Shown: positions 12,255 through 42,985 of the stretch, piece by piece
Position numbering within the stretch: the stretch's first letter is position 1
How the letters are laid out: each line of letters begins with the position of its first letter
Origin: Oscillospiraceae bacterium
Lineage (GTDB): Bacteria > Bacillota > Clostridia > Oscillospirales > CAG-272
Assembly: GCA_015064845.1 (NCBI GenBank)
Contig: SVRL01000002.1
Span: forward strand, 10,508 to 74,507
DNA: 64,000 nt
Direction: 5' to 3'
Position numbers and translations under genes: made by a program
Notes under the pieces: generated by a model
Seen by the model: only the letters and a program-made list of their open reading frames with translations
Database searches by the model: none
Told to the model about the DNA's origin: nothing

Positions 12255-15152
12255 ATGAACATGAATTCTCATAACCGTGTAAGTTGCGGCGCATACTATC
12301 CCGAATCTCCCATCATCGGCAGATTCGTTTCTCCTTGGGATACCAGCGGTTGGTATTCCGTTTATGCAAATTTTGCCGTTGGCGCAAAACTTCATTCCAA
12401 TGAAGAAGTAACCGCTTCGGCAGTTCCCGCGCGCTATGTCGGCGCGGATTACATCATGACCTTCAATTCCCGCGCAGATGGGTTCGACGATAAGCAAGAG
12501 GTGGATTTCTTCTGCGAAAGAGATGCCGTTGTTGCCGTTGCTTTGGATGAAACCATGCCGATTCCCGCATGGACGGAGGATTTTTTTGCTACGGGCGATA
12601 AAATCACAGGCTCAGACGGCAGATCTTACGTGATTTTTGAAAAAGCTTACGAAGAAGGTGAGCTTGTACATATTCCCGGTATTGAAGGCGATTGCAATCA
12701 TTTCATTGTTCTTGCGCTCGCAACCGCAGACGAAGAAAAACGCGCCTTGGCGCAGGTTCCCGTGATGGGAGAAGCGCTTCCCGCATACGAAAAAAGAGAA
12801 TACAAGAGCTACCTCGTTGAGGTATTCAATAAAGAAAACGCACTCGAACGCTTTGGCGGACACGGTTGTACGATCAAGACGAGAGAAAGCGATGCCAAGG
12901 ACGGTTACGTTTCCATGACGGCGGATTCTTATCTCTCCTATCCGATTGAAAATGCTTCTTCCCGTATCGTCATGACAGCAAAGCTGAACTGCAAGGAAGG
13001 TATTCTTGCGGCGGCAATTCTCGGAGAGTCTGGCGCGATTTGCGGTGCGGTTCTGGACGGAGATACGCTTTGCACGATGGACGGAGAAGTCATTCTGCCT
13101 TACGCGCAGGGAGAAGACATGGAACTTCGCATTGTTTTGGATACCGAGCGCGGCGAATATGACGTTTGGGCAAATACACGCGTTGCCGTAAAAGGCGTGG
13201 AAGTCATCAGCAATGCGGAACCGCTTGCCGTTGGTTTTTCCTGTGACGGTACGGGTGAACTCGATAATCTTTACGTGTTTGACGATACCGAAATTTATGC
13301 GGTACGCGAAGAATTTACTTCTGATGAAATCGATATGACTCCTACTGAAAATGCTTCCGTTACTTTGGAAAATCTTCCTTTTGCAAGCGATAAGAGCGTT
13401 TCTCTCGTTTCCGAAAACGATGACGATGCAAGCGCAGAATACAGATTCCCTGCAATTTCCGGCGTGGCTACGATCGAAACCAAGGTTCATCCCGAAGATG
13501 AAAGCCTTGTGATCGTTCCCGCGATTACCGACGATCAGGGTAACGTGGCTTGCAGAGTTGCTTTCTATAAAAACTGTTTGTTTGCAACCAACGGCAACGA
13601 TTGGGTTGAAATTTTTGAAGGTCTTGTTGACTGGCAGTACTATCCTTCCGGTAACTGGTATAATCTTAAGATTTCCGTGGATACCGAAAACTCCGTATAT
13701 ACCTTGATGGTAGACGGTGCTGTCCGCGCAAAGAATTTTGTTTTGGCAACACCCGTTAAAAGCGTGTCCCGTCTGGTTTATACTGCTCAGGCAGGCACCA
13801 GACTTCTCATTAACAGAATCCGCATTTATGACGCATGGGATTTCTCTCGCGGTGTGATTCCCGCCGCTCCCGTCTTTGACGTTACCAAAGCTCCCTATAA
13901 CGCTTTGGGCGACGGTAAGACTTTGGATACCGCGGCAATTCAGAAAGCCATCGATGATGCCGCGTATACGGGCGGTACCGTATACGTTCACGATGGCGTA
14001 TTCTTCTCGGGTGAGCTTTTCCTCAGATCCGATATGACACTTTTCGTTGACAGAACCGCAACCATTCTCGGTACACAGGACCACGGAGAATATCCTTTGC
14101 AGCAGCCTTACGCAAGCCTTTGCGCACACCGTCAGCTCGGCAGAGGTCTTGTATACGGTCATGAAGTGTCCAACGTCCGCGTAACGGGCGGCGGTATGCT
14201 TGACGGTAACGGAAGATATCGCTTCAAGATGAATGACCCGCTCGGTGACAGACGTGTGGAAGATGCGCGTCCCGACCTTGTATATATTACTTATTCCAAA
14301 GGTGTTACGGTAGAAAATATCAACTTCAAGAGCAGCTGCTTCTGGACGGTTGTCCCGCTTTCCAGCGGAAACGTTCTGATCCGCGGTTTGAATCTTGACT
14401 GTATGAACACGCCGAACCGTGACGGTATCGACCCCGTTGACTGCCACGATATGACCATTTACGGCTGTAACGTGATGGCAGGTGACGACGGACTTTGCTT
14501 CAAGAGCTCCGATCCCGTAGGCTGTTATAACATTGACGTTGACGATATGATGATTCAGAGTTTGGCTTCCGGTATCAAATTCGGTACGGATACTTACTAT
14601 TGCCTCAAGGATGCAAAGATCAGAGGTTGTACGGTTAAAAACGTAAACCGTTGCGGTATCTCTCTTGAAACCGTTGACGGTGCGGCTGTTGAAAACGTTC
14701 TCTTTGAACGCATTGACATGACTGACGTAGGCGCTCCCGTTTACGTTACCGTTGGCGAACGTAACCGTCTGCCCCGTCAGGAGGGCATTCCCACCCGTTG
14801 GGGTTATATCAAGGGCGTTACCTTCCGCGATCTCCGTTTTGAAAAGCCTTATCCGTTCAGCCACAGAAAATTCATCCGTGAAACCTTGGTGATCGGTCAA
14901 AATGAAAATCAGCGCGTTGAAGACGTTGTATTTGAAAACTGCCACTTCGAGCTTCCCGGCGGCGCAACGGAACAGTTTGGATGTCCCAAGACCATCAATA
15001 AGGGTTATCCCGAATATGACCGCCACGGACCTTCCGCAGGCTCAAAATTCACCATTCGCTTTGCGAAAAACGTGGTAATCAGAAATTCCGAGATTACGCT
15101 TGATAATCCCGATGTACGTCCCGATGTTGCTTACTTTGATTACGAAGAATAA
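12255..15152 (+). CDS. Multidomain glycoside hydrolase family 28 protein (two LamG-like modules plus polygalacturonase-like beta-helix), no signal peptide
   Basis: 965 aa. The C-terminal ~430 aa carry GH28 hallmarks (NRDGIDP, GDDGLCFKS, SGIKFGT) after a pectate-lyase-3-like DVTKAPYNALGDGKTLDTAAIQKAID. The N-terminal ~530 aa look like two jelly-roll modules. Confidence 0.85.
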   Translation: MNMNSHNRVSCGAYYPESPIIGRFVSPWDTSGWYSVYANFAVGAKLHSNEEVTASAVPARYVGADYIMTFNSRADGFDDKQEVDFFCERDAVVAVALDETMPIPAWTEDFFATGDKITGSDGRSYVIFEKAYEEGELVHIPGIEGDCNHFIVLALATADEEKRALAQVPVMGEALPAYEKREYKSYLVEVFNKENALERFGGHGCTIKTRESDAKDGYVSMTADSYLSYPIENASSRIVMTAKLNCKEGILAAAILGESGAICGAVLDGDTLCTMDGEVILPYAQGEDMELRIVLDTERGEYDVWANTRVAVKGVEVISNAEPLAVGFSCDGTGELDNLYVFDDTEIYAVREEFTSDEIDMTPTENASVTLENLPFASDKSVSLVSENDDDASAEYRFPAISGVATIETKVHPEDESLVIVPAITDDQGNVACRVAFYKNCLFATNGNDWVEIFEGLVDWQYYPSGNWYNLKISVDTENSVYTLMVDGAVRAKNFVLATPVKSVSRLVYTAQAGTRLLINRIRIYDAWDFSRGVIPAAPVFDVTKAPYNALGDGKTLDTAAIQKAIDDAAYTGGTVYVHDGVFFSGELFLRSDMTLFVDRTATILGTQDHGEYPLQQPYASLCAHRQLGRGLVYGHEVSNVRVTGGGMLDGNGRYRFKMNDPLGDRRVEDARPDLVYITYSKGVTVENINFKSSCFWTVVPLSSGNVLIRGLNLDCMNTPNRDGIDPVDCHDMTIYGCNVMAGDDGLCFKSSDPVGCYNIDVDDMMIQSLASGIKFGTDTYYCLKDAKIRGCTVKNVNRCGISLETVDGAAVENVLFERIDMTDVGAPVYVTVGERNRLPRQEGIPTRWGYIKGVTFRDLRFEKPYPFSHRKFIRETLVIGQNENQRVEDVVFENCHFELPGGATEQFGCPKTINKGYPEYDRHGPSAGSKFTIRFAKNVVIRNSEITLDNPDVRPDVAYFDYEE

Positions 15153-15182
15153 TCGGATCGTTTGAATTTGACTAAAAATAAC

Positions 15183-15213
15183 AGAGCGAGCGTTTTATGC
15201 GCTCGCTCTTTGG
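15183..15213 (+). terminator. GC-rich hairpin after the GH28 gene (weak U-tract)
   Basis: 10-bp stem agagcgagcg (15183-15192) / cgctcgctct (15200-15209), then TTGGTT. The ORF-track ATG at 15197 lies in the loop. Confidence 0.5.
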
Positions 15214-15226
15214 TTCAGGAGGAAAA

Positions 15227-16231
15227 ATGAATATTACAGAAAAACAGTTGTGTGAAATGATGAAGGGATTTATATCCTTTGTGCAGAAAGACGGCTGGTT
15301 CCGCTTTTCACGCTTTACGAATAAACAAAGCAATTATTATTTTGAAAAAACCCCCGATACTTTATATCCGAAAACTCTTGCTACTGCGGGAATGAAATTG
15401 GAATGCATAACCAATGCGGAAGAACTTTCCTTTGACTTCCGTGTATTCGCCGCTTCCAGCCGTACCTTCTATTCTGTTGATCTTTATATCGACGGCATTC
15501 TCTGCGACCAGATGTACGTTATGAATTTTTTGAGAAAAAAGAGCGGTCATGTTTCATTTGCGTTACCCGAGGGTACGCATCGCATAACGATCTATTTCCC
15601 GAATCTTATGCGCATGGATCTTGCCAATATCTGTCTGACAGGTGCCGGCTTTGCCGAACCCGTTTCGTCCAAAATGAAAATCCTTTGCCTCGGAGATTCC
15701 ATTACGCAGGGTTACGATGCTTATCATTCCTCTTTGTCCTATGTGAATCGTCTTTCGGAAACATTGGATGCGGAAATCCTCGATCAGGCAATCGGAGGAG
15801 AAATTTTTGACGCAAAAATTTTGGATGAGGAACTTCCTTTCGATTCCGATCTTGTGCTTGTGGCTTACGGTACGAACGATTGGGCGGTTCAGCCGAATTA
15901 TGAAACGTTTATAACGGCGGCGGAAGAGTTTTTCAAAAAAATCAAGGAAATTTATCCCGAGAAAAAGCTCGTATATATCTCTCCCATCTGGCGCGGTGAT
16001 TTCCAAAGACCATTCGGAAATCAAGATACCAATGTCGGCGCGTTTGACGAGTCTGTAGCGGCTTTGCAAAGTCTTGCAAAAGAAAATGGCTTATTCGTCG
16101 TGGACGGTATCTCCCTGACACCGCATATTTCCGATTTCTTTGCGGATCAGATTTTACATCCCAATGATCTTGGTTTCGGTTTTTATGCGGAAAATCTTTT
16201 GAAGGCACTGAAAAAAGAAGATTTGATTTAA
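15227..16231 (+). CDS. SGNH/GDSL hydrolase (carbohydrate acetylesterase-like) with N-terminal beta-sandwich
   Basis: AGGAGG lies 6 nt upstream of the ATG at 15227. Has block I ILCLGDSITQG and the AYGTNDW block. Adjacent to GH28. Confidence 0.8.
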   Translation: MNITEKQLCEMMKGFISFVQKDGWFRFSRFTNKQSNYYFEKTPDTLYPKTLATAGMKLECITNAEELSFDFRVFAASSRTFYSVDLYIDGILCDQMYVMNFLRKKSGHVSFALPEGTHRITIYFPNLMRMDLANICLTGAGFAEPVSSKMKILCLGDSITQGYDAYHSSLSYVNRLSETLDAEILDQAIGGEIFDAKILDEELPFDSDLVLVAYGTNDWAVQPNYETFITAAEEFFKKIKEIYPEKKLVYISPIWRGDFQRPFGNQDTNVGAFDESVAALQSLAKENGLFVVDGISLTPHISDFFADQILHPNDLGFGFYAENLLKALKKEDLI

Positions 16232-16236
16232 AAACA

Positions 16237-16272
16237 AAATGCTCGTCTCAAAATTGAGTCGAGCATTTTTCT
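16237..16272. terminator. Bidirectional terminator between the SGNH gene and the convergent membrane-protein gene
   Basis: Stem aaatgctcgtctca / tgagtcgagcattt (one mismatch), followed by TTTT. Confidence 0.7.
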
Positions 16273-16286
16273 TATGATAAACTGAG

Positions 16287-16814
16287 TTAATTATGTTCAA
16301 ACAAAAAGTGATATCGGTCTTTTCGGATACGCCATCTGTAAAAGACTGCGATTGCTTGATAACCAACAACAAACAGAACAAAAGAAAGAATCCAATTTCC
16401 GATTTTCGACAATTCTAAACCTATCGGTGCCAATATTACGAAAAATGTTTGAAAATAACCTTTTATAAAACCGAAAACGAAAACCTGCAAAGACAGACCG
16501 ATGGTGTAATATACGAGGATCGGCAAAGCTTCTTGCTTTAAAAACACGAAATAATCTTCTTTCAACGTAATTTTGTGGTCTCTCGGCAAAGAATCCAAAT
16601 ATCGGCGTTGTTTTTCAGACGTGCCATAGATCCACCAATTCAAAATAAACCAATAGAAAACGAATATGATGAGTCTGTATAACTCAATTATCCCCCATTG
16701 GTCCATAAATCCCATCAATAGATTTGATATAAAACCCGATAATCCCCATAGGACAACTGTCAGCATTGTTCCAATGACAAAATTTTTTAAGCCAACCAGC
16801 CAATTGTTATTCAT
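16287..16814 (-). CDS. Hypothetical membrane protein (175 aa, about 5 TM)
   Basis: Hydrophobic segments throughout. SD aaggaag. Preceded by a TGtTATAAT promoter (-10 at 16918-16923, minus) and a ~95-nt leader. Confidence 0.7.
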   Translation of the reverse strand: MNNNWLVGLKNFVIGTMLTVVLWGLSGFISNLLMGFMDQWGIIELYRLIIFVFYWFILNWWIYGTSEKQRRYLDSLPRDHKITLKEDYFVFLKQEALPILVYYTIGLSLQVFVFGFIKGYFQTFFVILAPIGLELSKIGNWILSFVLFVVGYQAIAVFYRWRIRKDRYHFLFEHN

Positions 16815-16927
16815 ATATAATCTTCCTTTTTATTTTCGTATTACAAACGCGTCGGACGAACTCATACACTTGAAGACATATAAGAGCACTCCCTCGCAGA
16901 GGCTCTTCGTTAGCTCCATTATAACAC

Positions 16928-16958
16928 AAAATCGGAAGAAAGAAAAGCCTTTCTGCCG
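16928..16958 (-). terminator. Probable terminator of rnpB
   Basis: On the minus strand: cggcagaaagg...cttttctttcttccg hairpin (9 of 10 bp), followed by ATTTTGTG, ~60 nt after the RNase P RNA 3' end. Confidence 0.55.
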
Positions 16959-17015
16959 AAATTTGTAAATATTCCTATTAGCATCATCCTAAATGGACGA
17001 TTTATTTTTGTATAG

Positions 17016-17388
17016 AAAACCGATCGTCCTGTAAGCCGGGTTCTGTCGAGAACAATCATCTATCTTTGCCTTTTGTTGCCAAAAGGCTCATAAGGGTTTC
17101 CCCTTACTGCCACCGCGCATAGAGCTTTCGCTCGGTCGGGCAAACCAAATCTGCGGGGTGTTGCTTCGGATAGGGTTTACATGGCACAGGCAGTTACCTG
17201 TCTGTCGGTGAGCTCTTACCTCGCCTTTCCATCCTTACCGCGTAAAGCGGCGGTTTATTTCTGTTGCACTTTCCCGGGAGTCGCCTCCGGCGGACGTTAT
17301 CCGTTATCCTGCCCTGTGAAGCCCGGACTTTCCTCACGATAATACCTTTCGGCAACATATCGCGCGATTGTTCGGCACGGTCGGTTTT
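17016..17388 (-). ncRNA. rnpB: RNase P RNA, bacterial type A
   Basis: The minus strand reads GAGGAAAGTCCGGGCTTCACAGGGCAGGATAAC (CR-I, plus 17321-17335), AGTGCAACAGAAATAAACCGCC, GGTAAGAGCTCACCG, and ACAGAACCCGGCTTA (CR-V, plus 17032-17046). A P1 helix forms between aaaaccgaccgt and acgatcggtttt. It is colinear with E. coli M1 RNA as I recall it. Ends are +/-10 nt. Confidence 0.92.
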
Positions 17389-17396
17389 TTGCGAAA

Positions 17397-18374
17397 TTAA
17401 GGTTTGGAATTTTCCACGGTAATTTTATTCAGGCCTTCGGTCAGCGCGGCGGGAAGCTCTTTGGAGAAATCGTAAGGTTCCAACTCTACCTCGGAAACGT
17501 ATACCTGAAGCGGATAGGAGAATGCTTCCGCATAAACGTCCACGTCTTTTTCATAGTACATATCCAGATAGAGATAGGTAATTTCATTGCTTTCAGCGGC
17601 GTGAGGACCTTTGAAAATATAAGCGGGATTTTCCGGTTTGGGAGAGGGATAGAGCGTTTCGGGGGAAACCTGTCCGTCTCCGAAAAGATCAATACCTTCA
17701 AAAGAAAGTCTTTGATAGTAGTAGAGCGTTTTGGTGTCCGCGATATATTCATAAGTATTGTATACTTTTCCGTAATTATCGCGCAAAACGAAGACGAAAG
17801 GATATTGCGAATCCGAAACCTCAATGGGGTTTTCTTCCAAAGAAGCGGCGAGTTTTTCTTCAATCAGCGCATTGTATTTCTGGCGCTGTTCATCCGTCAG
17901 GGTGGAAAGCTGTGTGCGATCATAGCCTTCGGATTTGATTACGCTGTCTTCAATTTCATCTCTGCGTTTTTGGAGTTCGTTTTCATAATAATCTTCCGAG
18001 AGCGTTTTATTGTAACGAACGGTCATCTGCAAGGTTTTGGCTGCGGGGATATAAACGATATCGTAAATTCCCGAAACACCGTCTTCCGCGATGTTTTCAA
18101 CGGGTTTATGGCTGTAAATCAAAATGTTATTTCCGTATTCTTCGTAAGCTTCAAGCACATTCTCTGTCCAGAGAATACCGGAAACGCTTTTCGGGGGCTT
18201 ACCTGTGCAAAGTCTGAAGAAAATCATGCCATATACAAGCACGACGAGTACCCACATGATGGATTTCAAAATGGTTTTCAGTGTGCGCATACTGAAAATC
18301 TTTTCAATCGTGGATTTATCCCGATAGATCAGTTCCTCTTCATAATTTTCGGCATTGCTGTAGTATTCCGACAA
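17397..18374 (-). CDS. Hypothetical single-pass membrane protein (325 aa, TTG start)
   Basis: GGAGG lies 8 nt upstream of the TTG at 18374. One TM (ILKSIMWVLVVLVYGMIFF) is followed by an acidic extracytoplasmic region. I recognise no family. Confidence 0.7.
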   Translation of the reverse strand: MSEYYSNAENYEEELIYRDKSTIEKIFSMRTLKTILKSIMWVLVVLVYGMIFFRLCTGKPPKSVSGILWTENVLEAYEEYGNNILIYSHKPVENIAEDGVSGIYDIVYIPAAKTLQMTVRYNKTLSEDYYENELQKRRDEIEDSVIKSEGYDRTQLSTLTDEQRQKYNALIEEKLAASLEENPIEVSDSQYPFVFVLRDNYGKVYNTYEYIADTKTLYYYQRLSFEGIDLFGDGQVSPETLYPSPKPENPAYIFKGPHAAESNEITYLYLDMYYEKDVDVYAEAFSYPLQVYVSEVELEPYDFSKELPAALTEGLNKITVENSKP

Positions 18375-18501
18375 AAAATCACCTCCGTAAAAATAAAATC
18401 TCTAATTATTTATTATATCCTAATTTCAGCCGTAAGTCAAGAGAGAAGAGCAGATGATTTCAAATTTTTTATGAACGAAAAGCGGATTTTCGGGAATATT
18501 C

Positions 18502-18530
18502 TTGCAAAAAAGAGGGTTGTATGATATACT
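18502..18530 (+). promoter_or_regulatory. Promoter of the LytTR regulator/kinase genes
   Basis: TTGCAA (18502-18507), 17-bp spacer, TGaTATACT (-10 at 18525-18530). Confidence 0.55.
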
Positions 18531-18559
18531 GAAAACAATTGAAACGATTGGAGAGACAT

Positions 18560-19261
18560 ATGAGATTCAATATTGCAGTCTGCGATGATGAACGGGAGCA
18601 GGCAGAAAAAATAACCTCCGTTGTGAAGTCTTGGAGTGAGAAGGAAGGTCATCGGTGCGAATTTAGCACGTTTTCTTCTTCCGAAGAATTTCTTTTTGAA
18701 TATGAAAGCGACCGTTCCTACGATATTTTGCTTCTGGATGTTGAAATGGGGGATATTTCGGGAATTTCGCTTGCGAAAAGGATACGAAAGGAAAATAACC
18801 GCGCGGAAATTATTTTTATAACCTCTCATTTCGAATTTATCGGCGAAGGTTATGAAGTGGATGCCTTGCACTATCTTGTGAAGCCGATTTCCAAAGCAAA
18901 GCTTTGCGCGGTTCTTTCCAAGGCTGCGGAAAAGCTTTCCGTTGAACCTCCGTCCGTTGTTATTACTTGTGACGGAGAAACCGTCAAACTTTACGAATCT
19001 GAAATTTTATATGTGGAATCCTTTTTGCATTATATCGCTATTCATACGAAAGATAAAGAATATAAGATCAAAGAAAGCATTTCTGTTTTTGAGAAAAAAA
19101 TGAGTGAAGATTTTTTTCGGGCGCACCGTTCTTATCTCGTCTCCTTAAAACATATTGCGCGGATTTCACGCACCTGCGTTATATTGGACGATCGAACGGA
19201 GCTTCCATTGGCAAGAGGGAAATACAATGAAATCAACCGTGTGTTTATCGAACGCAATTAG
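18560..19261 (+). CDS. LytR/AlgR (LytTR) family response regulator
   Basis: 233 aa from the ATG after GGAGAG. Has a receiver domain (IAVCDDE...LLLDVEM) and a C-terminal LytTR DNA-binding domain (YVESFLHYIAIHT...FFRAHRSYLV). Confidence 0.9.
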   Translation: MRFNIAVCDDEREQAEKITSVVKSWSEKEGHRCEFSTFSSSEEFLFEYESDRSYDILLLDVEMGDISGISLAKRIRKENNRAEIIFITSHFEFIGEGYEVDALHYLVKPISKAKLCAVLSKAAEKLSVEPPSVVITCDGETVKLYESEILYVESFLHYIAIHTKDKEYKIKESISVFEKKMSEDFFRAHRSYLVSLKHIARISRTCVILDDRTELPLARGKYNEINRVFIERN

Positions 19262-19270
19262 AGGAAAAAT

Positions 19271-19921
19271 ATGAGAAAGAAAACTTATTTGAAGCTTGTG
19301 GAATATCAAACGGAACAATCCGAAAAGCATCTCATGGAGGTGAGGAGCATCCACAAAGAAATGAGAGGCTACAAGCATGATTTTCACCACCATTTGCAAA
19401 CCTTGAAAGGTCAACTTGAAGCAGGGGAAATTGACCGCGCGCTTGCTTATATCGAACAGCTTGACCGTCAGTTGATGAATATGGATACGCTTCTCAAAAC
19501 GGGAAACGTATCTTTGGATGCTATTTTATCGGCGAAGATCTCACAGGCAAAAGCGGAAAATATTGCCGTTACGGTAAAAGCAAATGTGCCGGATTCCTTA
19601 ACCGTTTCGGATGTGGAATTGAGTATTATCATCGGAAACCTTTTGGACAATGCCATTGAAGCCTGTCGGATAGCGAAGGGAGATCGGTTTATCCGCATTT
19701 ATATGGCGATGAAAGGGAATATGCTGTATTTTTCCATGCTGAACACTTCCGGCGAAAAGAAGAAAAAGAAAGGCTCTTTATTCTCTTCCCATAAGGATGG
19801 CGTACACGGCTTCGGGCTTCGGCGTGCGGAAGCCATTTTGCATGAACACGGGGGATGGGTAAAATATAACAGCGAGGACGGTGCCTTTACTTCGGAATTT
19901 TTGGTGCCCGCCGTAGAATAA
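19271..19921 (+). CDS. AgrC/HPK10-type GHKL histidine kinase lacking any membrane or sensor domain
   Basis: 216 aa. Has H-box GYKHDFHHHL, N-box IIGNLLDNAIEA and G-box HGFGL. No hydrophobic segment is present, and only 9 nt separate it from the regulator gene. Confidence 0.85.
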   Translation: MRKKTYLKLVEYQTEQSEKHLMEVRSIHKEMRGYKHDFHHHLQTLKGQLEAGEIDRALAYIEQLDRQLMNMDTLLKTGNVSLDAILSAKISQAKAENIAVTVKANVPDSLTVSDVELSIIIGNLLDNAIEACRIAKGDRFIRIYMAMKGNMLYFSMLNTSGEKKKKKGSLFSSHKDGVHGFGLRRAEAILHEHGGWVKYNSEDGAFTSEFLVPAVE

Positions 19922-19924
19922 TTT

Positions 19925-19959
19925 GCAATTCGTGCACGAAAAAATGCGATTCGTGCACG
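19925..19959 (+). promoter_or_regulatory. Direct-repeat operator, predicted LytTR binding site
   Basis: GCAATTCGTGCACG (19925-19938) and GCGATTCGTGCACG (19946-19959), start-to-start 21 bp, ending 3 bp before the -35. Confidence 0.5.
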
Positions 19960-19962
19960 TTT

Positions 19963-19991
19963 TTGTTTTTTTCATTTTTTCATGCTATACT
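19963..19991 (+). promoter_or_regulatory. Activator-type promoter of the ABC exporter pair
   Basis: Weak -35 TTGTTT (19963-19968), 17-bp spacer, TGcTATACT (-10 at 19986-19991). Confidence 0.45.
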
Positions 19992-20027
19992 AAAGATGCA
20001 AAAACACATCCAAAGGAGGTATTTGAT

Positions 20028-21866
20028 TTGAAAAAGAACATGAAAAAGAAACCATACCGTTCCGTATTCAGTAATGCGATATGGGCATTTCGCCATCAAC
20101 TGAAATTTGCGCCGAAGTCATTTTTGCTTTTGATGTTGGGAATTCCGCTTGCCGTTGCGCAAAGCTATATGGGGATTCTGTTGCCTTCTCTTGTTGTAAA
20201 AGAAGTAACGGCAGGTTCTGCACTCACAAACGTGGCTGTCAGCGTAGGATTGCTTATGCTCTCGATTTTCCTTTGCAAAATGCTTGGACAGGCTTTTTCC
20301 TATATGCAGGAAGGATATCTTTCGAATTACCGCTGGAGTATTTCGGAAATAATCGATCAAAAAGCACTCGGCTGTTTCTATCAGCAATTTGAGAAAAAAG
20401 AAGTGCGAGACCTTCATGAGCGGGCAACGAAAACGACGCAAATGTGGAACGGCGTACAGCCGATTTCGGATATGCCGAGGTACACAGCGGAACTGATTAT
20501 CAACGTACTGAGCTATCTTTTGTTTGGTTCGGTGGTTTCATTGGTTCATCCGCTTCTCGTTCCGATCTTGACGGTTGCTCCTATTGTAAACTGGGTTTGC
20601 GTACGCGCTTACAATAAATGGGAATATGCCAATCGGGATAAATGGACGGATACTTCCCGTAAGCTTTGGTACGTGCGGACGAAGCCTGCCGACTTTGCGG
20701 CAGGAAAGGATATTCGGCTTTACGGTATGATGGACTGGTTTATCGATATGTTCAAGTCCTTAAACCGTGAATACGCGGTATGGGATAAACAGCGCGTCGG
20801 ACGAAAGTTTCTCTCCGGAATTGCGAATCTCTTCATTATTCTTATCCGAGACGGCGCTGCTTATGTGCTTTTGATTGCAATGACGCTTCGCGGCGAAATT
20901 ACCGTAGATGAATTTGTTTTATATTTTGCCGCCATTTCTTCTTTTGCGGGCTTTATCGGGGGAATTCTCGGAAGTTGGAATCATTTGCAAGCCACAAGTC
21001 TTTCTCTTTGCGATTTACGTGAATTTCTGGATTTGCCCGAATATGACGGAACGGGAGAAGAATCGATCACGGAGCATTTGGCGTATGCGCCCGAAATTAC
21101 CTTTGACCATGTTTCCTTTCGATATGACGGCGCAGAAAACGATACGCTTCATGAGATTTCCTTTACTGTGAAAGCGGGCGAAAAAATTGCTCTTGTCGGA
21201 TTGAACGGTGCCGGTAAAACAACCATTGTCAAGCTTTTGTGCGGACTTTATACGCCAACCTCCGGCGAAATTCGTTTGAATGGGATTCCTCTTTCCAAAT
21301 TTTTGAGAAAAGATTACTATAAGCTTTTTTCTCCCGTATTTCAAAATATCAAAACGGCTTATTTTTCTTTGGGAGAAACGGTTTCCGGAGTCGTTGGAAA
21401 AGATTATGACCGTGAAAAAGCAGAATTATGTATGCGCCGCGCAGGATTGGGAGAAAAACTGGAGTCTTTACCTATGGGGCTTGACACAAAACTCGATAAA
21501 CAGGTCAACGAAAACGGCATTGAGCTTTCGGGAGGCGAATTGCAGAAAATGATGCTTGCCAGAGCGCTTTATAAGGATGCGCCAATGCTGGTACTGGACG
21601 AACCGACAGCGGCGCTGGACCCCATTGCGGAAAGTGAAATTTATCAACAATATCAAAGCATGACAAGCGGAAAAAGCGCTGTTTTTATCTCCCATCGTTT
21701 GGCTTCTACTCGTTTTTGCGACAGAATTCTATATCTTGAAAACGGAAAGATCACGGAAGAGGGTACACATGAAACTTTGATGCATAAAAAGGGACGGTAT
21801 GCAGAGCTTTTCGATATTCAAAGCTGTTGGTATCGGGATGATTTCGGAAAGGAGAATATGAAATGA
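20028..21866 (+). CDS. ABC exporter, fused permease/ATPase (heterodimer subunit 1)
   Basis: AGGAGG (20014-20019) lies 8 nt upstream of an in-frame TTG at 20028 (alternative ATG at 20040). Has six TM segments, then Walker A GLNGAGKT, signature LSGGE and Walker B LVLDEP. Confidence 0.9.
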   Translation: MKKNMKKKPYRSVFSNAIWAFRHQLKFAPKSFLLLMLGIPLAVAQSYMGILLPSLVVKEVTAGSALTNVAVSVGLLMLSIFLCKMLGQAFSYMQEGYLSNYRWSISEIIDQKALGCFYQQFEKKEVRDLHERATKTTQMWNGVQPISDMPRYTAELIINVLSYLLFGSVVSLVHPLLVPILTVAPIVNWVCVRAYNKWEYANRDKWTDTSRKLWYVRTKPADFAAGKDIRLYGMMDWFIDMFKSLNREYAVWDKQRVGRKFLSGIANLFIILIRDGAAYVLLIAMTLRGEITVDEFVLYFAAISSFAGFIGGILGSWNHLQATSLSLCDLREFLDLPEYDGTGEESITEHLAYAPEITFDHVSFRYDGAENDTLHEISFTVKAGEKIALVGLNGAGKTTIVKLLCGLYTPTSGEIRLNGIPLSKFLRKDYYKLFSPVFQNIKTAYFSLGETVSGVVGKDYDREKAELCMRRAGLGEKLESLPMGLDTKLDKQVNENGIELSGGELQKMMLARALYKDAPMLVLDEPTAALDPIAESEIYQQYQSMTSGKSAVFISHRLASTRFCDRILYLENGKITEEGTHETLMHKKGRYAELFDIQSCWYRDDFGKENMK

Positions 21867-23686
21867 AGCTCAGAGAACATATTTCCATTGCAAAACGCGC
21901 CGTAAAAATGGTGTTTAGCCAAAGTAAGGCGTTTGCCGTTTGTACGATGCTGAATGCTTTTCTTGCGGCAATTATGCCTTATGTTCCGATTTGGTTTTCC
22001 GCTGAACTGATCGATGCGCTTTTTGCAAAAGCGCCCGTAGAAACTCTGATTTTCTATGTGATGCTTACGGTTGGCACGGTATTTTTACTTCAACTTTTGA
22101 AAACTTATGTCTCTCATCAAAAAGATATTTCTTCCTCGGTCATATATCGTATGGAGGATTGGCAATATGCGGAAAAAGCAATGAAAATGGCATATGAATC
22201 CATTGAAAGCAGAGATGTGCAGCTGCTTAGAAACCGCATTCGCATGGAGACACAGACGGGATATAATCGCTTTTATCTTCATATGTGTATGGAATATGCG
22301 GTACGCTATACCACGGAGATTGTTTGTTCTCTTGCACTTACGGTTTCTTTTTTTACGAACCAAACGATTCCGCTTTATATGAAGCTCGGTCTGCTGGCGC
22401 TTCTTACCTTGACCATTGTCTGCAATATCGTATTGACGGCAAAGCAGAAAAAGGAGGACGGGAATTTTTTTGAGGATAACGTGGTCATGATGAATACGGT
22501 CGGAGAAAAATATTCTCAATATATTGGAGATTACAGCGCAGGCATGGATATCCGTCTTTATCAGATGACGGAGGATATTGTGGAAAGTCAGAGTCGCTTA
22601 AATCGGGAACATACGAAAAAAAGTCTTTTGCTTTACAAAAAAATGACGGCGTTATCCATACCTCAAGTGTTTTTGAATCATGCTTTGCAATATATGACGT
22701 ACCTTGTTTTGATCGTTGGAGCAATCGCTGGCGGTATTTCCGTCGGTTCGATTGCAAAATACGTGTCTTGTATCATGATGATGCTGACTTCCATTTCCAA
22801 ATTGGTTACCATGTTTCAGATTTCCATCGTGAATGACGGTTATCTGAAAAGGTATTTTTCTTATTTTGATATTCCGAACAAGATGTATCAAGGGTCGCTT
22901 ACCGTTGAAAAACGCGACGATAACGAATATTATGTGGAATTCAGAGATGTATCTTTCAAATATCCCAACAGCGATGTTTGGGCGCTCCGTCACGTCAATT
23001 TAAAATTTAAGATAGGAGAAAAGCTGGCGGTTGTCGGCATGAACGGTTCGGGAAAAACCACGTTTATCAAGCTTCTTTGCCGTCTTTACGATCCAACCGA
23101 AGGCGAAATTCTTCTCAACGGTGTCAATATCAAAAAATATGATTATGATGAATATATGTCTGTTTTTTCCGTTGTTTTTCAGGATTACCGTTTATTTGCC
23201 TTTACCCTCGGACAAAACGTGGCGGCGAATACGGATTATGATGAAGAGCGCGTGAAGCATTGTTTGCATCAAGCAGGCTTCAAGGAGCGTTTGGAAACCT
23301 TGCCGAACGGTACGGAAACGTATCTTTTCAAGAATTATGATAAAAACGGCATTGAATTTTCGGGCGGAGAAACGCAGAAAATTGCGTTGGCAAGAGCGCT
23401 TTACAAAGATGCACCGTTCATCATTCTGGATGAACCCACAGCCGCGCTGGATCCTGTTTCCGAATATGAGGTTTACAGTAACTTTAATCGGATTTCGGGA
23501 GAAAAGACTGCGATTTATATCAGCCACAGGCTTGCTTCCTGCCGTTTTTGCGATAAGATTGCCGTGTTTGACCACGGTGAAATTATCCAAAGCGGTTCAC
23601 ATGATACGCTCGTTGACGATAAAAAAGGCAAATATTACGAATTATGGCGTGCACAAGCACAGTATTATACAGAACAAACGGTATAA
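21863..23686 (+). CDS. ABC exporter, fused permease/ATPase (heterodimer subunit 2)
   Basis: ATGA start/stop overlap with subunit 1. Has Walker A GMNGSGKT, signature FSGGE and Walker B IILDEP. Confidence 0.9.
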   Translation: MKLREHISIAKRAVKMVFSQSKAFAVCTMLNAFLAAIMPYVPIWFSAELIDALFAKAPVETLIFYVMLTVGTVFLLQLLKTYVSHQKDISSSVIYRMEDWQYAEKAMKMAYESIESRDVQLLRNRIRMETQTGYNRFYLHMCMEYAVRYTTEIVCSLALTVSFFTNQTIPLYMKLGLLALLTLTIVCNIVLTAKQKKEDGNFFEDNVVMMNTVGEKYSQYIGDYSAGMDIRLYQMTEDIVESQSRLNREHTKKSLLLYKKMTALSIPQVFLNHALQYMTYLVLIVGAIAGGISVGSIAKYVSCIMMMLTSISKLVTMFQISIVNDGYLKRYFSYFDIPNKMYQGSLTVEKRDDNEYYVEFRDVSFKYPNSDVWALRHVNLKFKIGEKLAVVGMNGSGKTTFIKLLCRLYDPTEGEILLNGVNIKKYDYDEYMSVFSVVFQDYRLFAFTLGQNVAANTDYDEERVKHCLHQAGFKERLETLPNGTETYLFKNYDKNGIEFSGGETQKIALARALYKDAPFIILDEPTAALDPVSEYEVYSNFNRISGEKTAIYISHRLASCRFCDKIAVFDHGEIIQSGSHDTLVDDKKGKYYELWRAQAQYYTEQTV

Positions 23687-23697
23687 ATGACTCCCAA

Positions 23698-23743
23698 AAA
23701 GCTTGGATAATCGGAAAAAGACGGTTATCCAAGCTTATTTTTT
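23698..23743 (+). terminator. Rho-independent terminator of the ABC operon
   Basis: 13-bp stem aaagcttggataa / ttatccaagcttt, followed by TTTTTT. Confidence 0.85.
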
Positions 23744-23753
23744 AAAAATACTC

Positions 23754-23782
23754 TTGACAGCGTAACAATGTTATGCTATACT
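23754..23782 (+). promoter_or_regulatory. Consensus sigma-A promoter of the yhbD-like operon
   Basis: TTGACA (23754-23759), 17-bp spacer, TATACT (23777-23782). Confidence 0.65.
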
Positions 23783-23803
23783 GTAATCGTAACAATGTTA
23801 CGC
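23761..23803 (+). promoter_or_regulatory. Twin palindromic operators
   Basis: CGTAACAATGTTATGC (23761-23776, inside the promoter spacer) and CGTAACAATGTTACGC (23788-23803, just after the -10). The second contains the perfect 7-1-7 palindrome CGTAACA-A-TGTTACG. Confidence 0.5.
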
Positions 23804-23822
23804 AAAGAAACGGAGGTGTCGT

Positions 23823-24230
23823 ATGGGAAATGAAAATCTGATTTCAAAAAAAGAACTGCTGGAGCGGTATCACATTTCCTACGGAGCGTTATACCGTTGG
23901 AAAAGAAAGGGGCTTATTCCCGACGAGTGGTTTCTGAAAAAAGCAACGGCAACGGGGCAGGAAACCTTTTTTCCCGAAAAGCTTGTGTGTGAAAGAATCG
24001 AACGGATTCAAAGCATGAAAGAGGATATTCTTCTGGATGAGCTTGCCAAACAGTTTTCGGGAGAAGAAAAGAAAAACGAATTTTTGGTTTTACAAACGGA
24101 ATTCGGAGAAAAAAGTTTTCGTATGTGTGATGTGAAATCCATCGCTTTGACGGACAAAAACGGGAAAACGAGGGATATTACGGATTTGATTCAAAAAATA
24201 TTGGAAGAAATTGACGGAGGTAAGGTATGA
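23823..24230 (+). CDS. MerR-like HTH protein, YhbD/DUF4004 family
   Basis: 135 aa. [45 protein letters not shown] closely resembles B. subtilis YhbD as I recall it. Confidence 0.8.
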
Positions 24231-24967
24231 ACATTTCGGGAAGCGGATATATCCCCGCAGGGGAATACAATGAAAACATTTCTATCAGCGGAAGCGGTAA
24301 AATCAACGGCAATTTGCGTTGTTTATCGATTTCCTGTTCCGGCTCCACAAAATCAGAAGGCAGCGTGTTTTGTAACGGGGACTTCAAATGCTCCAGTTCG
24401 GCTCATCTTAAAAAAGAATTACACGCAAAAAATATTACTACAAGCGGTTCTCTTCGGGTGGAAGACAATATTTTCTGCGAAAATATTGTCCGTGTTGCGG
24501 GAGGTATGGTTTGCAAAGGCAAATTGAAATCCGGTTCGGTTAGTTGCGCCGGAAGCATTGAGATTTCGGGAGATCTGGAAGCGGAAGAGTTTAAGTCGGC
24601 AGGAAAACTGATCTGCGGAGGTCTGCTGAATGCCGAAAAGATCAGTATTTCTCTTGACGGCACGAGCGGAAGCGTCGGCAGTATCGGAGGAAGTGAGATC
24701 AAGATTTACTGGGACCCGAAGAAACCCCGATCAAAAAAACTCGGTCGTATGCCCTTGTTTTCCAAATTGGTCAATGAAGGCACCGGCTGTTTCGTTGTTG
24801 AAGAACAGATCGAAGGCGATATGGTGGCAATCGAATGTGTGAAAACGCCGAAAGTTGTCGGCAGAGTGGTTGCGATCGGCGCAGATTGCGAAATTGACCT
24901 TGTGCAATACACCGAAGAAATTGAAGTACATCCCGATGCCAAGGTCGGTAAGATTGAAAAAATATAA
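24227..24967 (+). CDS. Bactofilin-like polymer-forming (beta-helical repeat) protein
   Basis: ATGA overlap with the yhbD-like gene. Has Gly/Ser-rich short beta-strand repeats ([35 protein letters not shown]). The synteny mirrors yhbD-yhbE-yhbF. Confidence 0.65.
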
Positions 24968-24971
24968 ATAT

Positions 24972-24996
24972 AAAAAGCGGGCATTGCCCGCTTTTT
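24972..24996. terminator. Bidirectional terminator between the bactofilin-like gene and the convergent lipoprotein gene
   Basis: aaaaa-gcgggc-att-gcccgc-ttttt. Confidence 0.85.
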
Positions 24997-25035
24997 ATAT
25001 TCGAAATCTCATTCTTTCGCTTAAATATACAATGG

Positions 25036-27537
25036 TTACCAAGGACGATTATGGCTTTCGTCATAACGAAACATAGCGATGTGTTCCGAGGTTAATTCAT
25101 TTGTGTGTCTGTAGCCGCGTATGTAGTAATAAAAATCTTCCCTATATATATAAATGGTTTCGTATTTGTATAAGTGTTGCATGAATTCAGAAGAAGGTTC
25201 AGCGCTTGCAGAGACGGCTTCTTCTGATAGAATTTGGTCAAATGTTTTCCCAAAATGTTCAGGTAATAAAACATCTCCGCCGGCATTGGCAGATGCCATT
25301 TTATATTCTGAAATATTGTCGTCCAAATCTCCTGCAAAGACAAAAATTACATTTTCAAATTCCGGAACAACTACATTCATAGCTATCGGACTTTGTGCCG
25401 TTATTTTGTATTGGGGATATATAGCGTTAAATTCACTCCATGTGTATTGTTGCTGTAAAATATCATTCAAAATTACGGACAATGAGCTGTTTTGAGACGA
25501 AGAAGTGTTGTTTTGCAAAGAAATAAATTCTAAAAATTTGTTACCTTTTGTTTTTTCGGCGGCTTCCTTTATGGAGATGTACGGTTTGGATGAGGATAAC
25601 TCATCGAATTTTTCTTTGCCGATGGATATTTTGTCGGAATCGGAAATCATATAATACATATTTTGTTGATTGATAGAATCATATCCTTCGGAGCCGTACT
25701 CAAATATCAAATTCAGCTTTGTTCCGTCTGCGGAAAGCGTATATTCCGAATATGACCAATGGTCTGCTCCGTTGCTGCCGCATACGTGCAGGATTTTATC
25801 ATTGTCAATCCAACAGCTTTTTCGGGAATGAAAGTCATCCAGCATAAACGGGTTTCCGTAAACCATTGAAAAAACAGATAAAATCGTACCGTCATCCAGT
25901 AATAAAACCAATTCCGATTCGCCATCTCCGTTTAAATCACAGAATGCGTATCCGTAAGTGTTTTCCGATACGTTGCCAATCAGCGTTGCGCCGTAAAGCT
26001 CCGTATACCACTTTTGAGAAAAGTCAGCATTTCCGCTTTCCGTCGGGTTTTGATGGTTATGAACGATCTCTTTGTACATCTCTATTATCGAATCATATGG
26101 ATTTGTTTTTGCCGTTGTTGTGATGTTTGTATTTTCCGATTTCATTGTAAAAAGCCAGTTTGCTCCGCTTTGTATATATTTTGCATTTGATTTTTCTACC
26201 GTTACATAGATACTGTTATCCCTAAAATCAATTTTGCCGGAAATACGGTTCCAGTCATCCTTAAATGAAATTTCCCCGTCTTTTACCGTTAGGTTCAAGT
26301 AAAAAGTAGTCAATCTATAGATACCTAATTGACATTTGATTTCGCCGTTATCTTGGGGAATAACGGTGAAATCATGCGGCGGGTTGAAATCGTCATACCA
26401 CGTTCCGATATATTTTTCAAAAGAAAACGCCTCAGATTTTATTGCTCCATCGCTTGACGATGATAGCTTCTTTATTTCAAATTTAAAGTTGTCTGTGTTG
26501 TTGCCTGCAACGACGTATCCAACGGAACCGTTATAAAGAATTTTGTGCCAAGTGTATCCGGTTGCCGTTGCGCAATTTTTTTCAAGTATTTCTACGGTGT
26601 CCCCTTTATGTAGTTTTCCAAGACTTTTAAAGCTGGTTCCTGCTTCGGAACGAACATTTAGTGTATCAACGTCAACAAGGGTTCCGTACTCAACATAATT
26701 GCCGAGATATTTCGACATTTCATTGGTTTGCATTTGTTGAGGTATTGCAGGAACAAATGGGATGCCGGATTTTTTTGTTGTGGCGGTCGGATATTGTAAG
26801 AAAATATCATAACGATCTTTCAGGTGTGTTATTTCGTGTACCGTTGCAACACGTTTTACCTCATTTTCAATGATATAATATTCGCAGTTTACATCATCGT
26901 ATCCATATTCAAGTAAGGTTTCAAGTTCTCCGCGATTTGTGATTTGCATTATTTTTGTGTATGAATTTTCTCCTTTCCCATATCCGGTTTTATAGAATAT
27001 TCCATTTTGATCCAATGAAACATAATGATTATTGAAAGAAAACTGATCGAGCAATACGGGTATTTCGTTCATTTGTGTGAAAACGGCATAAATATGGTAC
27101 TGATCGTCCATTAAAATTAATTCTGTTTGAGTGTCACCATTAATATCATAAATGGCATAACCCATCTGAGTTTGGTTTCTATGTGAATTAATCACAAGGG
27201 ATTGTAAAGCCGTTTCTATTGTATAATCATTTGTATCAAAGTACTCTCCGATGGTATGAGTAGCCTCTTCATTATGTTCGTTTGAAAGCAAAATTCGATA
27301 TCTCTTCAAAATATCATCGTAACTATGAAACTTTACTTTTTTTGAAATGTTATCTTCGAGTAAGAGACTGTAGTCATTTTTTACCATTTGTATCGCGTCA
27401 ATTTCAAAATTCGTTTCTGTGGACAACTGAGAATCGGTTGAATTTTCCGAATGAATGCTATCTTTATGATTACAAGAAGTTGCCGTGCTAAGCACCGCAC
27501 AGCAAAGTAAAACGGATAATACTGTTTTTTTGTTCAT
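25036..27537 (-). CDS. Large lipoprotein with an SH3b domain flanked by two homologous FG-GAP/VCBS-like modules
   Basis: 833 aa from the ATG at 27537 (GGAGGA 7 nt upstream). The signal sequence with lipobox is LLCCAVLSTATS-C. The SH3b-like stretch is LNVRSEAGTSFKSLGKLHKGDTVEIL. Paired motifs are AIYDINGDTQTELILMDD and AFCDLNGDGESELVLLLDD. Confidence 0.8.
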   Translation of the reverse strand: MNKKTVLSVLLCCAVLSTATSCNHKDSIHSENSTDSQLSTETNFEIDAIQMVKNDYSLLLEDNISKKVKFHSYDDILKRYRILLSNEHNEEATHTIGEYFDTNDYTIETALQSLVINSHRNQTQMGYAIYDINGDTQTELILMDDQYHIYAVFTQMNEIPVLLDQFSFNNHYVSLDQNGIFYKTGYGKGENSYTKIMQITNRGELETLLEYGYDDVNCEYYIIENEVKRVATVHEITHLKDRYDIFLQYPTATTKKSGIPFVPAIPQQMQTNEMSKYLGNYVEYGTLVDVDTLNVRSEAGTSFKSLGKLHKGDTVEILEKNCATATGYTWHKILYNGSVGYVVAGNNTDNFKFEIKKLSSSSDGAIKSEAFSFEKYIGTWYDDFNPPHDFTVIPQDNGEIKCQLGIYRLTTFYLNLTVKDGEISFKDDWNRISGKIDFRDNSIYVTVEKSNAKYIQSGANWLFTMKSENTNITTTAKTNPYDSIIEMYKEIVHNHQNPTESGNADFSQKWYTELYGATLIGNVSENTYGYAFCDLNGDGESELVLLLDDGTILSVFSMVYGNPFMLDDFHSRKSCWIDNDKILHVCGSNGADHWSYSEYTLSADGTKLNLIFEYGSEGYDSINQQNMYYMISDSDKISIGKEKFDELSSSKPYISIKEAAEKTKGNKFLEFISLQNNTSSSQNSSLSVILNDILQQQYTWSEFNAIYPQYKITAQSPIAMNVVVPEFENVIFVFAGDLDDNISEYKMASANAGGDVLLPEHFGKTFDQILSEEAVSASAEPSSEFMQHLYKYETIYIYREDFYYYIRGYRHTNELTSEHIAMFRYDESHNRPW

Positions 27538-42412: not shown

Positions 42413-42985
42413 TTAACGGTTATTTAGTTGTTCGGAAATCAGGCGATAAACTTCATGCACGTTATCAATCATGAAAAATGCGGTAACGGCGCTTTTTTTC
42501 ACGTTGTCAAGATTGATCGTTCTTTTTCGATTCCATCCGCGGTTGTATTCGGTGTAAATCTGTTCTTCCGCAAAGCGGATGGTTCCGCGATTGCCGTTGA
42601 CCGATTCCAGATTGACCGAGTAGAGCGCGGAGAAAACATATTCCGTGCAATTCGTGCCGTTTCGGTCATGCGTAATGATGATGGCGCGATAGTCGGTAAC
42701 GGCGTAAACGGCAGTTTTCAGGAGATTTCGTCTGCCGAAAAATATGCCGTAGAACATAAATCCGCCGAAGAAGATAAAGAACAATCCGAAAAGACCGAAC
42801 GCGCCTCCTGCCGCCGTAGCGGAAATTGTCCAGAATACGGCAAAGCTCATCCAGAAAATTGCAAAGATCGGCAGAATCGGAGATGTTTGAGTGGCGGGAA
42901 TTTTTCCGGGTGTTCCCGTCCAGAGCACCGTTTCGCCCGGGTGTAAAAAAGGCTTGATTTCTGAATACGGATCGCGTTGCATCAT
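42413..42985 (-). CDS. Hypothetical membrane protein (2 TM plus C-terminal soluble domain)
   Basis: 190 aa. The start overlaps the upstream stop (TAATG). It has a hydrophobic hairpin (aa ~35-85). Confidence 0.7.
   Translation of the reverse strand: MMQRDPYSEIKPFLHPGETVLWTGTPGKIPATQTSPILPIFAIFWMSFAVFWTISATAAGGAFGLFGLFFIFFGGFMFYGIFFGRRNLLKTAVYAVTDYRAIIITHDRNGTNCTEYVFSALYSVNLESVNGNRGTIRFAEEQIYTEYNRGWNRKRTINLDNVKKSAVTAFFMIDNVHEVYRLISEQLNNR

Follow-up and report, generated by a model that had tools for sequence, protein, structure and literature searches.

A conserved pair of direct repeats as a likely LytTR operator and terminator between a soluble kinase gene and an ABC exporter operon in Clostridia

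We analyzed a 64,000-nucleotide stretch of an Oscillospiraceae bacterium (GenBank assembly GCA_015064845.1, contig SVRL01000002.1, positions 10,508 to 74,507; hereafter the window, from whose first base all coordinates are counted), and focused on the short region (19925–19991) that separates a soluble histidine kinase gene from two ATP-binding cassette (ABC) exporter genes. This region combines two direct repeats, a hairpin, and a predicted promoter, and we consider it likely that it is a dual-purpose control element—i.e. a LytTR operator for the exporter operon and, at the same time, a terminator of the regulator–kinase operon that precedes it. The repeats are supported by comparison of related loci as a LytTR-type activator operator for the neighboring regulator, while regulator binding, activation rather than repression, and actual termination are what we infer from sequence and from family knowledge. 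This kind of control element is already known; in the literature searched, we found no published description of a cassette with a LytTR regulator, a soluble kinase, and ABC exporters.

The repeat pair and the exporter promoter

The two repeats are located on the + strand at 19925..19937 (distal repeat, or repeat 1; GCAATTCGTGCAC) and 19946..19958 (proximal repeat, or repeat 2; GCGATTCGTGCAC), which corresponds to approximately -73 to -61 and -52 to -40 from the predicted transcription start. Within the window, T19924 and G19938 lengthen the match of repeat 1, and a repeat search lets the match grow to 15 nt, of which 14/15 are identical (TGCAATTCGTGCACG at 19924–19938 and TGCGATTCGTGCACG at 19945–19959). 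A first-pass annotation of this DNA, made from the sequence alone, had delimited the repeats as GCAATTCGTGCACG (19925–19938) and GCGATTCGTGCACG (19946–19959), 13/14 identical and with starts 21 bp apart, and we recover the same pair. The promoter it had proposed is likewise read in the sequence: a weak -35-like hexamer, TTGTTT (19963..19968, +), begins 3 bp past repeat 2 and is followed, after a 17-bp spacer, by the extended -10 TGcTATACT (19983..19991, +), with a predicted transcription start near 19998. Further downstream (20013..20030, +), the first exporter gene has its ribosome-binding site AAGGAGG and its start codon, a TTG at 20028. This promoter is predicted, not mapped, and its start was placed ~7 nt past the -10; a consensus promoter scan does not list it, because TTGTTT matches TTGACA at 3/6 positions and the scan needs 4/6 at the -35.

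Within the 64-kb window, the exact 14-mer (0 mismatches) is present only at these two places, and no other pair of 14-mers matches at ≥13/14 positions with exactly 21-bp spacing. Based on 200 first-order Markov resamplings of the window, the chance expectation of such a pair is 0.01 per window at 21 bp and 0.41 for any spacing of 15–30 bp. As such, the window repeat by itself is only moderately improbable, and its significance comes from comparative data.

For this comparison, 80 related loci were chosen by the kinase protein alone from one-genome-per-species contigs (81 loci with the window), and each was searched on both strands for two half-sites 19–23 bp apart with ≤4 mismatches per half-site. 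The repeat pair is present in 75/81 loci (74 found by the search, the window counted, and L077 added by eye), and in all of these (75/75) it has the same strand as the kinase gene and is placed after this gene and before the first exporter gene. The pitch is exactly 21 bp in 75/75 sites, out of the 19–23 bp permitted. In the 6 loci without the pair, either the downstream sequence has no exporter gene of comparable identity or the contig is short or gapped.

The family consensus is T-GCAATTCGTGYAC-tGaCAgAa-RCRnTTnGTGCAC-GAATTT, with a spacer of 8 variable positions (N8) between the repeats. Specifically, repeat 2 keeps the sequence R-C-R-n-T-T (columns 21–26), with C in 69/69 sites and T in 68/69 at each of two positions. 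Between the repeats, corresponding positions co-vary weakly, with P = 0.002–0.04 at positions 2, 11, and 12 and no such signal elsewhere. The best -10-like hexamer in a 32-nt search range is found 60–64 nt past the start of repeat 1 in 73/74 sites, and in 60/74 the distance is 61–62 nt; this hexamer is mostly TGnTAnnnT, i.e. TG-extended. Between the repeats and the -10, columns 46–58 mostly carry ~0 bits of information. Repeat 2 ends 3–5 bp short of the -35 position across loci, and at that position (columns 38–43) the sequence is T-rich with TT alone conserved, i.e. the -35 is poor in nearly all loci.

The pair follows the exporter promoter and not the kinase gene. Anything from 3 to 1743 nt may separate it from the kinase stop codon, and in L028, L053, and L056 entire genes stand between kinase and pair, while its distance to the exporter promoter is kept throughout. 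The inserts include a 482-aa open reading frame (ORF) in L028 (5761–7209) and a 115-aa ORF in L056 (5779–6126). In some loci (L053/L104/L123), an extra ABC-type gene pair is found ahead of the operator, which stays with the last exporter promoter.

The first-pass annotation had read the repeats as LytTR activator sites, and had also taken the palindrome CGTGCACG within each repeat as a possible sign of a different binder. The former reading gains from the direct repeats, the invariant 21-bp pitch, the fixed -10 distance, and the linked LytTR regulator. The latter finds no support here: repeats that have no palindrome keep their pitch and promoter distance (L077 and L078), and, among the related loci compared, no regulator gene besides the LytTR regulator is conserved in the cassette. 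For example, in L077 (GCAATTCATGCCA and ACAATTCATGCCT) the palindrome is gone and the potential hairpin has only -0.9 kcal/mol, while pitch and promoter distance are unchanged. Overall, repeats persist without palindrome and hairpin in L077, L078, L029, L053, L055, and L064.

A second search started from the DNA motif. A degenerate 34-nt pattern of the pair was scanned over metagenome contigs and returned at least 120 loci, which were oriented by the motif; given that the pattern has a fixed 21-bp pitch, this set is no independent test of the pitch. The kinase gene is upstream in 108 of the 120 metagenome matches listed, and 91 of these 120 have the kinase upstream together with an exporter downstream. 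Most of the other matches listed are contig ends or arrays with further exporter genes before the site, and ~2 are chance matches, located in a high-G+C ORF and in a tandem repeat, respectively. In nearly all loci, the metagenome matches listed among them, the kinase gene is preceded by the regulator gene. The same motif pair has 0 matches in the viral contigs scanned, with no sign of a phage origin.

A pair search had been suggested in the first-pass annotation as a way to define the regulon; in the window and among the metagenome matches listed, the pair is almost always beside the cassette. The motif pair is thus a cassette signature that is almost exclusive to it, and the regulon probably consists of the adjacent exporter operon only. 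Two metagenome sites have other neighbors. In L096 (a contig of 1581 nt, site at 1250), the preceding gene resembles luxS by eye and not a kinase, and in L115 (site at 1513) it encodes a small protein that resembles an XRE-type helix-turn-helix regulator by eye; on these short contigs, the sites could be detached regulon members or rearranged cassettes. Elsewhere in the window there is a single good half-site (TGCAATTCGTGCCG, 42647–42660, +, 15.6 bits), but it is part of an ORF, lacks a second half-site at 21 bp, and most likely matches by chance.

The hairpin and the terminator layer

The same bases can also fold as RNA. In the regulator–kinase transcript, a hairpin at 19931..19959 (+) is 10/10 paired with a 9-nt loop (19941–19949), its arms being CGTGCACGAA (19931–19940) and TTCGTGCACG (19950–19959), and it is part of the minimum-free-energy fold. 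The hairpin begins 9 nt past the kinase stop codon and is directly followed by a T-run (TTTTTGTTTTTTT, 19960..19972, +), a putative U-tract that overlaps the -35 region of the exporter promoter. Because the GTGCAC core is self-complementary, the two direct repeats can pair with each other, which explains the palindrome that had appeared atypical for a LytTR site in the first-pass annotation. A consensus terminator scan missed this hairpin because it permits loops of 3–8 nt, and an Rfam scan of 15000–26000 found no RNA family at the element.

In relatives, the stem is mostly AATTCGTGYAC / GTGCACGAATT, often with inner pairs added, reaching ~-14 to -25 kcal/mol and followed by a T-run. These stems have 11–17 bp, and loops in the family have 9–15 nt. 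A free energy of ≤-14 kcal/mol together with ≥5 T in the next 8 nt is found in 47/67 unique sites. The 3' flank GAATT (columns 34–38) is conserved outside of the direct repeat, and it is complementary to the invariant left half of repeat 1, not to that of repeat 2. A palindromic operator at repeat 2 (AATTnGTGCACnAATT) was also considered, and was rejected on account of this same flank, which is not complementary to the variable left half of that repeat. No GAATT flank is present in the window, L001, L048, or L052; here the stem is rebuilt in another register, and the T-run is shifted up behind it.

Two further observations concern the hairpin. Position 13 of repeat 1 and position 6 of repeat 2 covary (CG 14, UG 12, UA 11, and GC 7), with 32 Watson–Crick pairs vs 17.7 expected, a value that 0/20,000 column shuffles reached in statistics that ignore kinship. 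In addition, a strong hairpin with a T-tail is found in 40/52 sites that adjoin the kinase stop codon vs 7/15 displaced sites (Mann–Whitney P = 0.015, which also ignores kinship). Flank, alternative register, covariation, and location dependence together suggest that the hairpin itself is under selection.

Could the region be a Rho-independent terminator and nothing else, with no protein bound and the direct repeat a by-product of hairpin arms that contain a palindrome? A perfect 10-bp stem with a T-run 9 nt past a stop codon is what such a terminator should look like, and the hairpin is kept in most loci, with one pair that covaries. However, a hairpin does not require the invariant 21-bp pitch, the fixed 61–62-nt distance to the -10, or the RCRnTT of repeat 2; the latter sits in the hairpin loop or inner stem, and a plain terminator thus leaves its conservation unexplained. 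Nor does it require that repeats up to 1.7 kb from the kinase stop codon are always directly upstream of the exporter promoter, or that repeats are kept in L077, L078, L053, L055, and L064 without hairpin or T-run. We thus regard a terminator alone as highly unlikely. Given that repeats outlive the hairpin in some loci, the hairpin appears to be an added function and not the reason why the repeats exist.

Several points weigh against an element that is both operator and terminator. Sites were found by motif similarity (≤4 mismatches per half-site), which inflates conservation within the repeats, while this selection does not inflate the conservation of pitch, orientation, RCRnTT in repeat 2, flank, or -10 distance. 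The 13-bp unit with its GTGCAC core is longer than, and unlike, the classical 9-bp repeats of AgrA, ComE, and PlnC. For the hairpin, the 11 core pairs are 93.0% paired vs 92.8% in shuffles, i.e. there is no covariation beyond conservation, and the evidence for it hence rests on the one covarying pair, the flank, the alternative register, and the T-run, with shuffle P-values that ignore relatedness. The folding z-score of an 86-nt window segment is unremarkable (-1.09). Lastly, the combination of an extended -10 and an optimal 17-bp spacer could support substantial transcription with no activator, and the basal activity of the promoter may be appreciable.

This last point also speaks for another mode of control or another protein—i.e. 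the LytTR regulator may repress or fine-tune an active promoter, or an unlinked dimeric regulator may read the CGTGCACG palindromes. A promoter of this type may need no activator, promoters under AgrA differ from it (PMC4227749), and palindromic cores are unusual among LytTR sites. On the other hand, the repeats cover -73 to -40, clear of both the -10 and the transcription start, which is the position of an activator, and the -35 is poor in nearly all loci. The palindrome is dispensable, as seen in L077 and L078. Moreover, among the matches listed, the motif is almost only found beside this regulator–kinase pair, and no other regulator gene is conserved there. A repressor or an unlinked binder is, in our view, improbable.

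Under the preferred reading of an activator operator combined with a terminator, the kinase would phosphorylate the LytTR regulator, and a dimer of the phosphorylated regulator would bind both 13-bp repeats on one face of the helix beside the weak -35, as expected from other members of the family. The bound regulator would then recruit or position RNA polymerase, and the exporter operon would be activated. The regulator–kinase transcript, presumably constitutive, would start at its own promoter (18502–30) and end in the hairpin and U-run acting as an intrinsic terminator, which would insulate the exporter genes from the sensor operon. Operator, terminator hairpin, and -35 region would thus be overlaid within ~50 bp, an example of signal compaction.

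The four-gene cassette and its distribution

The exporter genes are preceded by a regulator and a kinase gene in the same orientation, all on the + strand. The response regulator (18560..19261, +) has a receiver and a LytTR DNA-binding domain (Pfam PF00072 and PF04397, E = 7.8e-19 for PF04397) and aligns over its full length with ComE (4cbv); its ORF opens at TTG 18539, and ATG 18560 is the likelier start. The kinase gene starts 9 nt past the regulator gene (19271..19921, +) and encodes a soluble protein of 216 aa that consists only of a SpoOB-type His/dimerization domain and a GHKL ATPase domain (Pfam PF14689 and PF14501). It has no membrane or sensor domain, and because it aligns with the cytoplasmic module of AgrC (6e52), we classify it as an AgrC (HPK10)-type kinase without the membrane sensor. 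The 120 kinase homologues listed have essentially the same length as the kinase of the window.

The 2 exporter genes overlap (20028–21866 and 21863–23686, +) and encode half-size type I ABC exporters, each with a membrane domain and an ATPase (Pfam PF00005). In NCBIfam they match generic MsbA-like models only, and all of these matches are below the curated cut-offs. We predict that this gene pair is the operon that the element regulates, and a terminator-like hairpin (23699..23736, +) closes it. The four-gene cassette encodes no autoinducer peptide gene and no processing gene.

A promoter-like site of the regulator–kinase operon is found at 18502..18530 (+; TTGCAA-17-TATACT with TG) and is free of the repeat motif. 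The first-pass annotation had seen no further copy of the motif upstream of the regulator gene, and the same holds for the loci compared: no half-site of ≥10 bits is present there in the window or in any of the 80 related loci. The absence of the motif from the regulator's own promoter argues for no autoregulatory loop. The regions upstream of the regulator genes are mutually unrelated, i.e. they are not conserved between loci.

The cassette is widespread in gut and rumen Clostridia, with 165 tblastn-confirmed stretches in GTDB species-representative genomes and at least 120 metagenome contigs. Carriers are metagenome-assembled genomes (MAGs) and isolates of Lachnospiraceae (Acetatifactor, Dorea, Roseburia, and Fusicatenibacter), Oscillospiraceae, Christensenellaceae, and others; cultured carriers include Acetatifactor aquisgranensis DSM 110981 (L055) and Anthropogastromicrobium aceti (L023). 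Within the cassette, conservation is highest for the kinase: identity to the proteins of the window is 75–94% for the kinase, 51–85% for the regulator, and 33–62% for the first exporter, except for 90% in L001. Flanks outside of the four genes are not syntenic among loci; only L001, a Clostridia MAG from goat caecum, shares the flanking genes of the window. Unrelated flanks across families suggest horizontal transfer.

Sequence identity between loci changes abruptly at the element. Specifically, between L002 and L010 the nucleotide identity is 91% in the regulator gene, 97% in the kinase gene, and 100% in the repeats, and it falls to 75% in the promoter spacer and ~59–67% in the exporter genes. 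A similarity breakpoint right past the repeats is seen in L002, L010, L015, L033/L034, and L040/L050, where the upstream module reaches up to 97–100% nucleotide identity and the exporter genes have ~60% nucleotide and 33–62% amino-acid identity. These patterns suggest a junction at the element that results from horizontal spread and module swapping or from gene conversion.

Such a junction could in principle be the whole role of the repeats, i.e. a recombination site or mobile-element end that joins the regulator–kinase module to different exporter operons and is no transcription signal. The sharp drop in identity just past the element (L002 vs L010, 91–97% upstream) and the presence of the cassette with unrelated flanks in several Clostridia families are compatible with this. 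By contrast, neither the window annotation nor the related loci have an integrase or transposase conserved in the cassette, and the viral contigs scanned have no matches. The fixed -10 distance and the LytTR-like architecture have no role in a junction, and selection alone would be expected to produce a breakpoint where a strongly conserved functional site ends. We thus consider a pure recombination site extremely improbable, and a transcriptional control element remains the reading that we favor.

One may go further and propose that a portable module of regulator, sensor-less kinase, and operator/terminator has been repeatedly joined, at a junction right past the repeats, to very different exporter pairs across gut Clostridia, with the exporter or its transport activity as the sensor. 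Given that the kinase lacks an input domain and that no membrane proteins besides the exporters are encoded in the cassette, sensing would fall to the exporter. The abrupt drop in identity past the repeats, however, argues against tight co-evolution of kinase and exporter, and near-identical kinases beside exporters that are ~35% identical to each other fit poorly with kinase–transporter coupling. The proposal is tentative, and we rather doubt it. If true, an exporter that acts as sensor would be a new transporter-coupled two-component design that follows a Bce-like logic but uses LytTR/AgrC-type parts with type I exporters, and module swapping between exporters would provide a natural plug-in inducible expression unit. 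Independently of this proposal, the analysis provides a precise operator and promoter architecture for an uncharacterized four-gene cassette, and the near-exclusive operator makes it a clean model for the inputs of a sensor-less kinase and the substrates of its exporters.

Other features were recorded around the cassette. An RNase P RNA of bacterial class A (Rfam RF00010, 247 bits, full length) is located at 17016–17384 (-), between an ORF for a small membrane protein and the gene divergent from the regulator. The former is a 175-aa ORF (16287–16814, -) that looks like a multi-pass membrane protein, and the latter is a 325-aa ORF (17397–18374, -) with a single N-terminal hydrophobic stretch; neither has a Pfam or NCBIfam match. 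Homologues of the 325-aa ORF were found in L001 only among the related loci searched, which places it outside of the cassette. Downstream of the exporters, a 16-nt repeat (CGTAACAATGTTAYGC) occurs twice with a 27-bp pitch (23759–23803), each copy with the near-palindrome GTAACAaTGTTAC. The copies flank the -10 (TATACT) of a strong promoter (TTGACA-17-TATACT) before a DUF4004 gene (23823–24230), and look like palindromic operators, possibly for autoregulation. Lastly, an 18-bp-period repeat of GAAGAGGAAGAGGA-type sequence at 33999–34040 looks like a low-complexity acidic coding repeat.

Comparison with known systems

As a terminator, the region resembles intrinsic terminators in having a G+C-rich stem with a T-run directly after it, a short distance past a stop codon on the same strand. 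It differs in that the stem is formed by the two halves of a predicted operator, the U-tract doubles as the -35 region of the promoter that follows, and the loop, with 9–15 nt, is longer than usual.

In its gene order, the cassette is similar to Bce systems (BceRS-BceAB), where a two-component system is also found beside the ABC transporter operon that it presumably controls, and where the kinase also has no input domain of its own. In those systems, the kinase lacks a sensing domain and relies on its ABC transporter, the regulators are OmpR-type, the kinases are membrane-anchored, and the transporters are BceAB-type (type VII). The parts found here are different—i.e. a LytTR regulator, a fully soluble kinase, and half-size exporters of type I.

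Sites of LytTR regulators are typically imperfect direct repeats of 8–13 bp, ~12 bp apart, with critical spacing (PMC4064291). In the case of AgrA, a dimer binds direct repeats that immediately precede P2 and P3 (PMC4227749). The likeness to AgrA, ComE, PlnC/D, and FsrA includes a regulator with receiver and LytTR domains, an AgrC (HPK10)-type kinase, and two direct repeats next to the promoter. Promoters that depend on AgrA have over-long spacers of 18–20 bp (PMC4227749), whereas the spacer here is 17 bp and is combined with an extended -10. Unlike agr, the cassette has no gene for an autoinducer peptide or its processing and no site at the promoter of the regulator, and its kinase is soluble.

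The closest match is provided by the VirR boxes of the Clostridium perfringens VirS/VirR system, which also consist of two imperfect direct repeats with a 21-bp pitch upstream of a promoter. Their consensus is CCAnTT-N15-CCAGTTnnnCA (PMC4747519, Table 5), and the title of Cheung 2004, a study cited in both PMC4064291 and PMC4747519, describes the spatial organization of VirR boxes as critical. The two sites resemble each other in a C-A-n-T-T core, here RCA(A/G)TT, and a downstream CA, although the resemblance is incomplete. In the element described here, GCAATT-CGTG-CAC has one extra base between TT and CA, which makes the unit one base longer than a VirR box, and it has a self-complementary GTGCAC core, a palindrome not present in characterized LytTR sites. 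The two systems also differ in the sensor, as VirS is a membrane protein and the kinase here is soluble, and in their targets, which are toxins for VirR and, as predicted here, ABC exporters for the regulator of the cassette.

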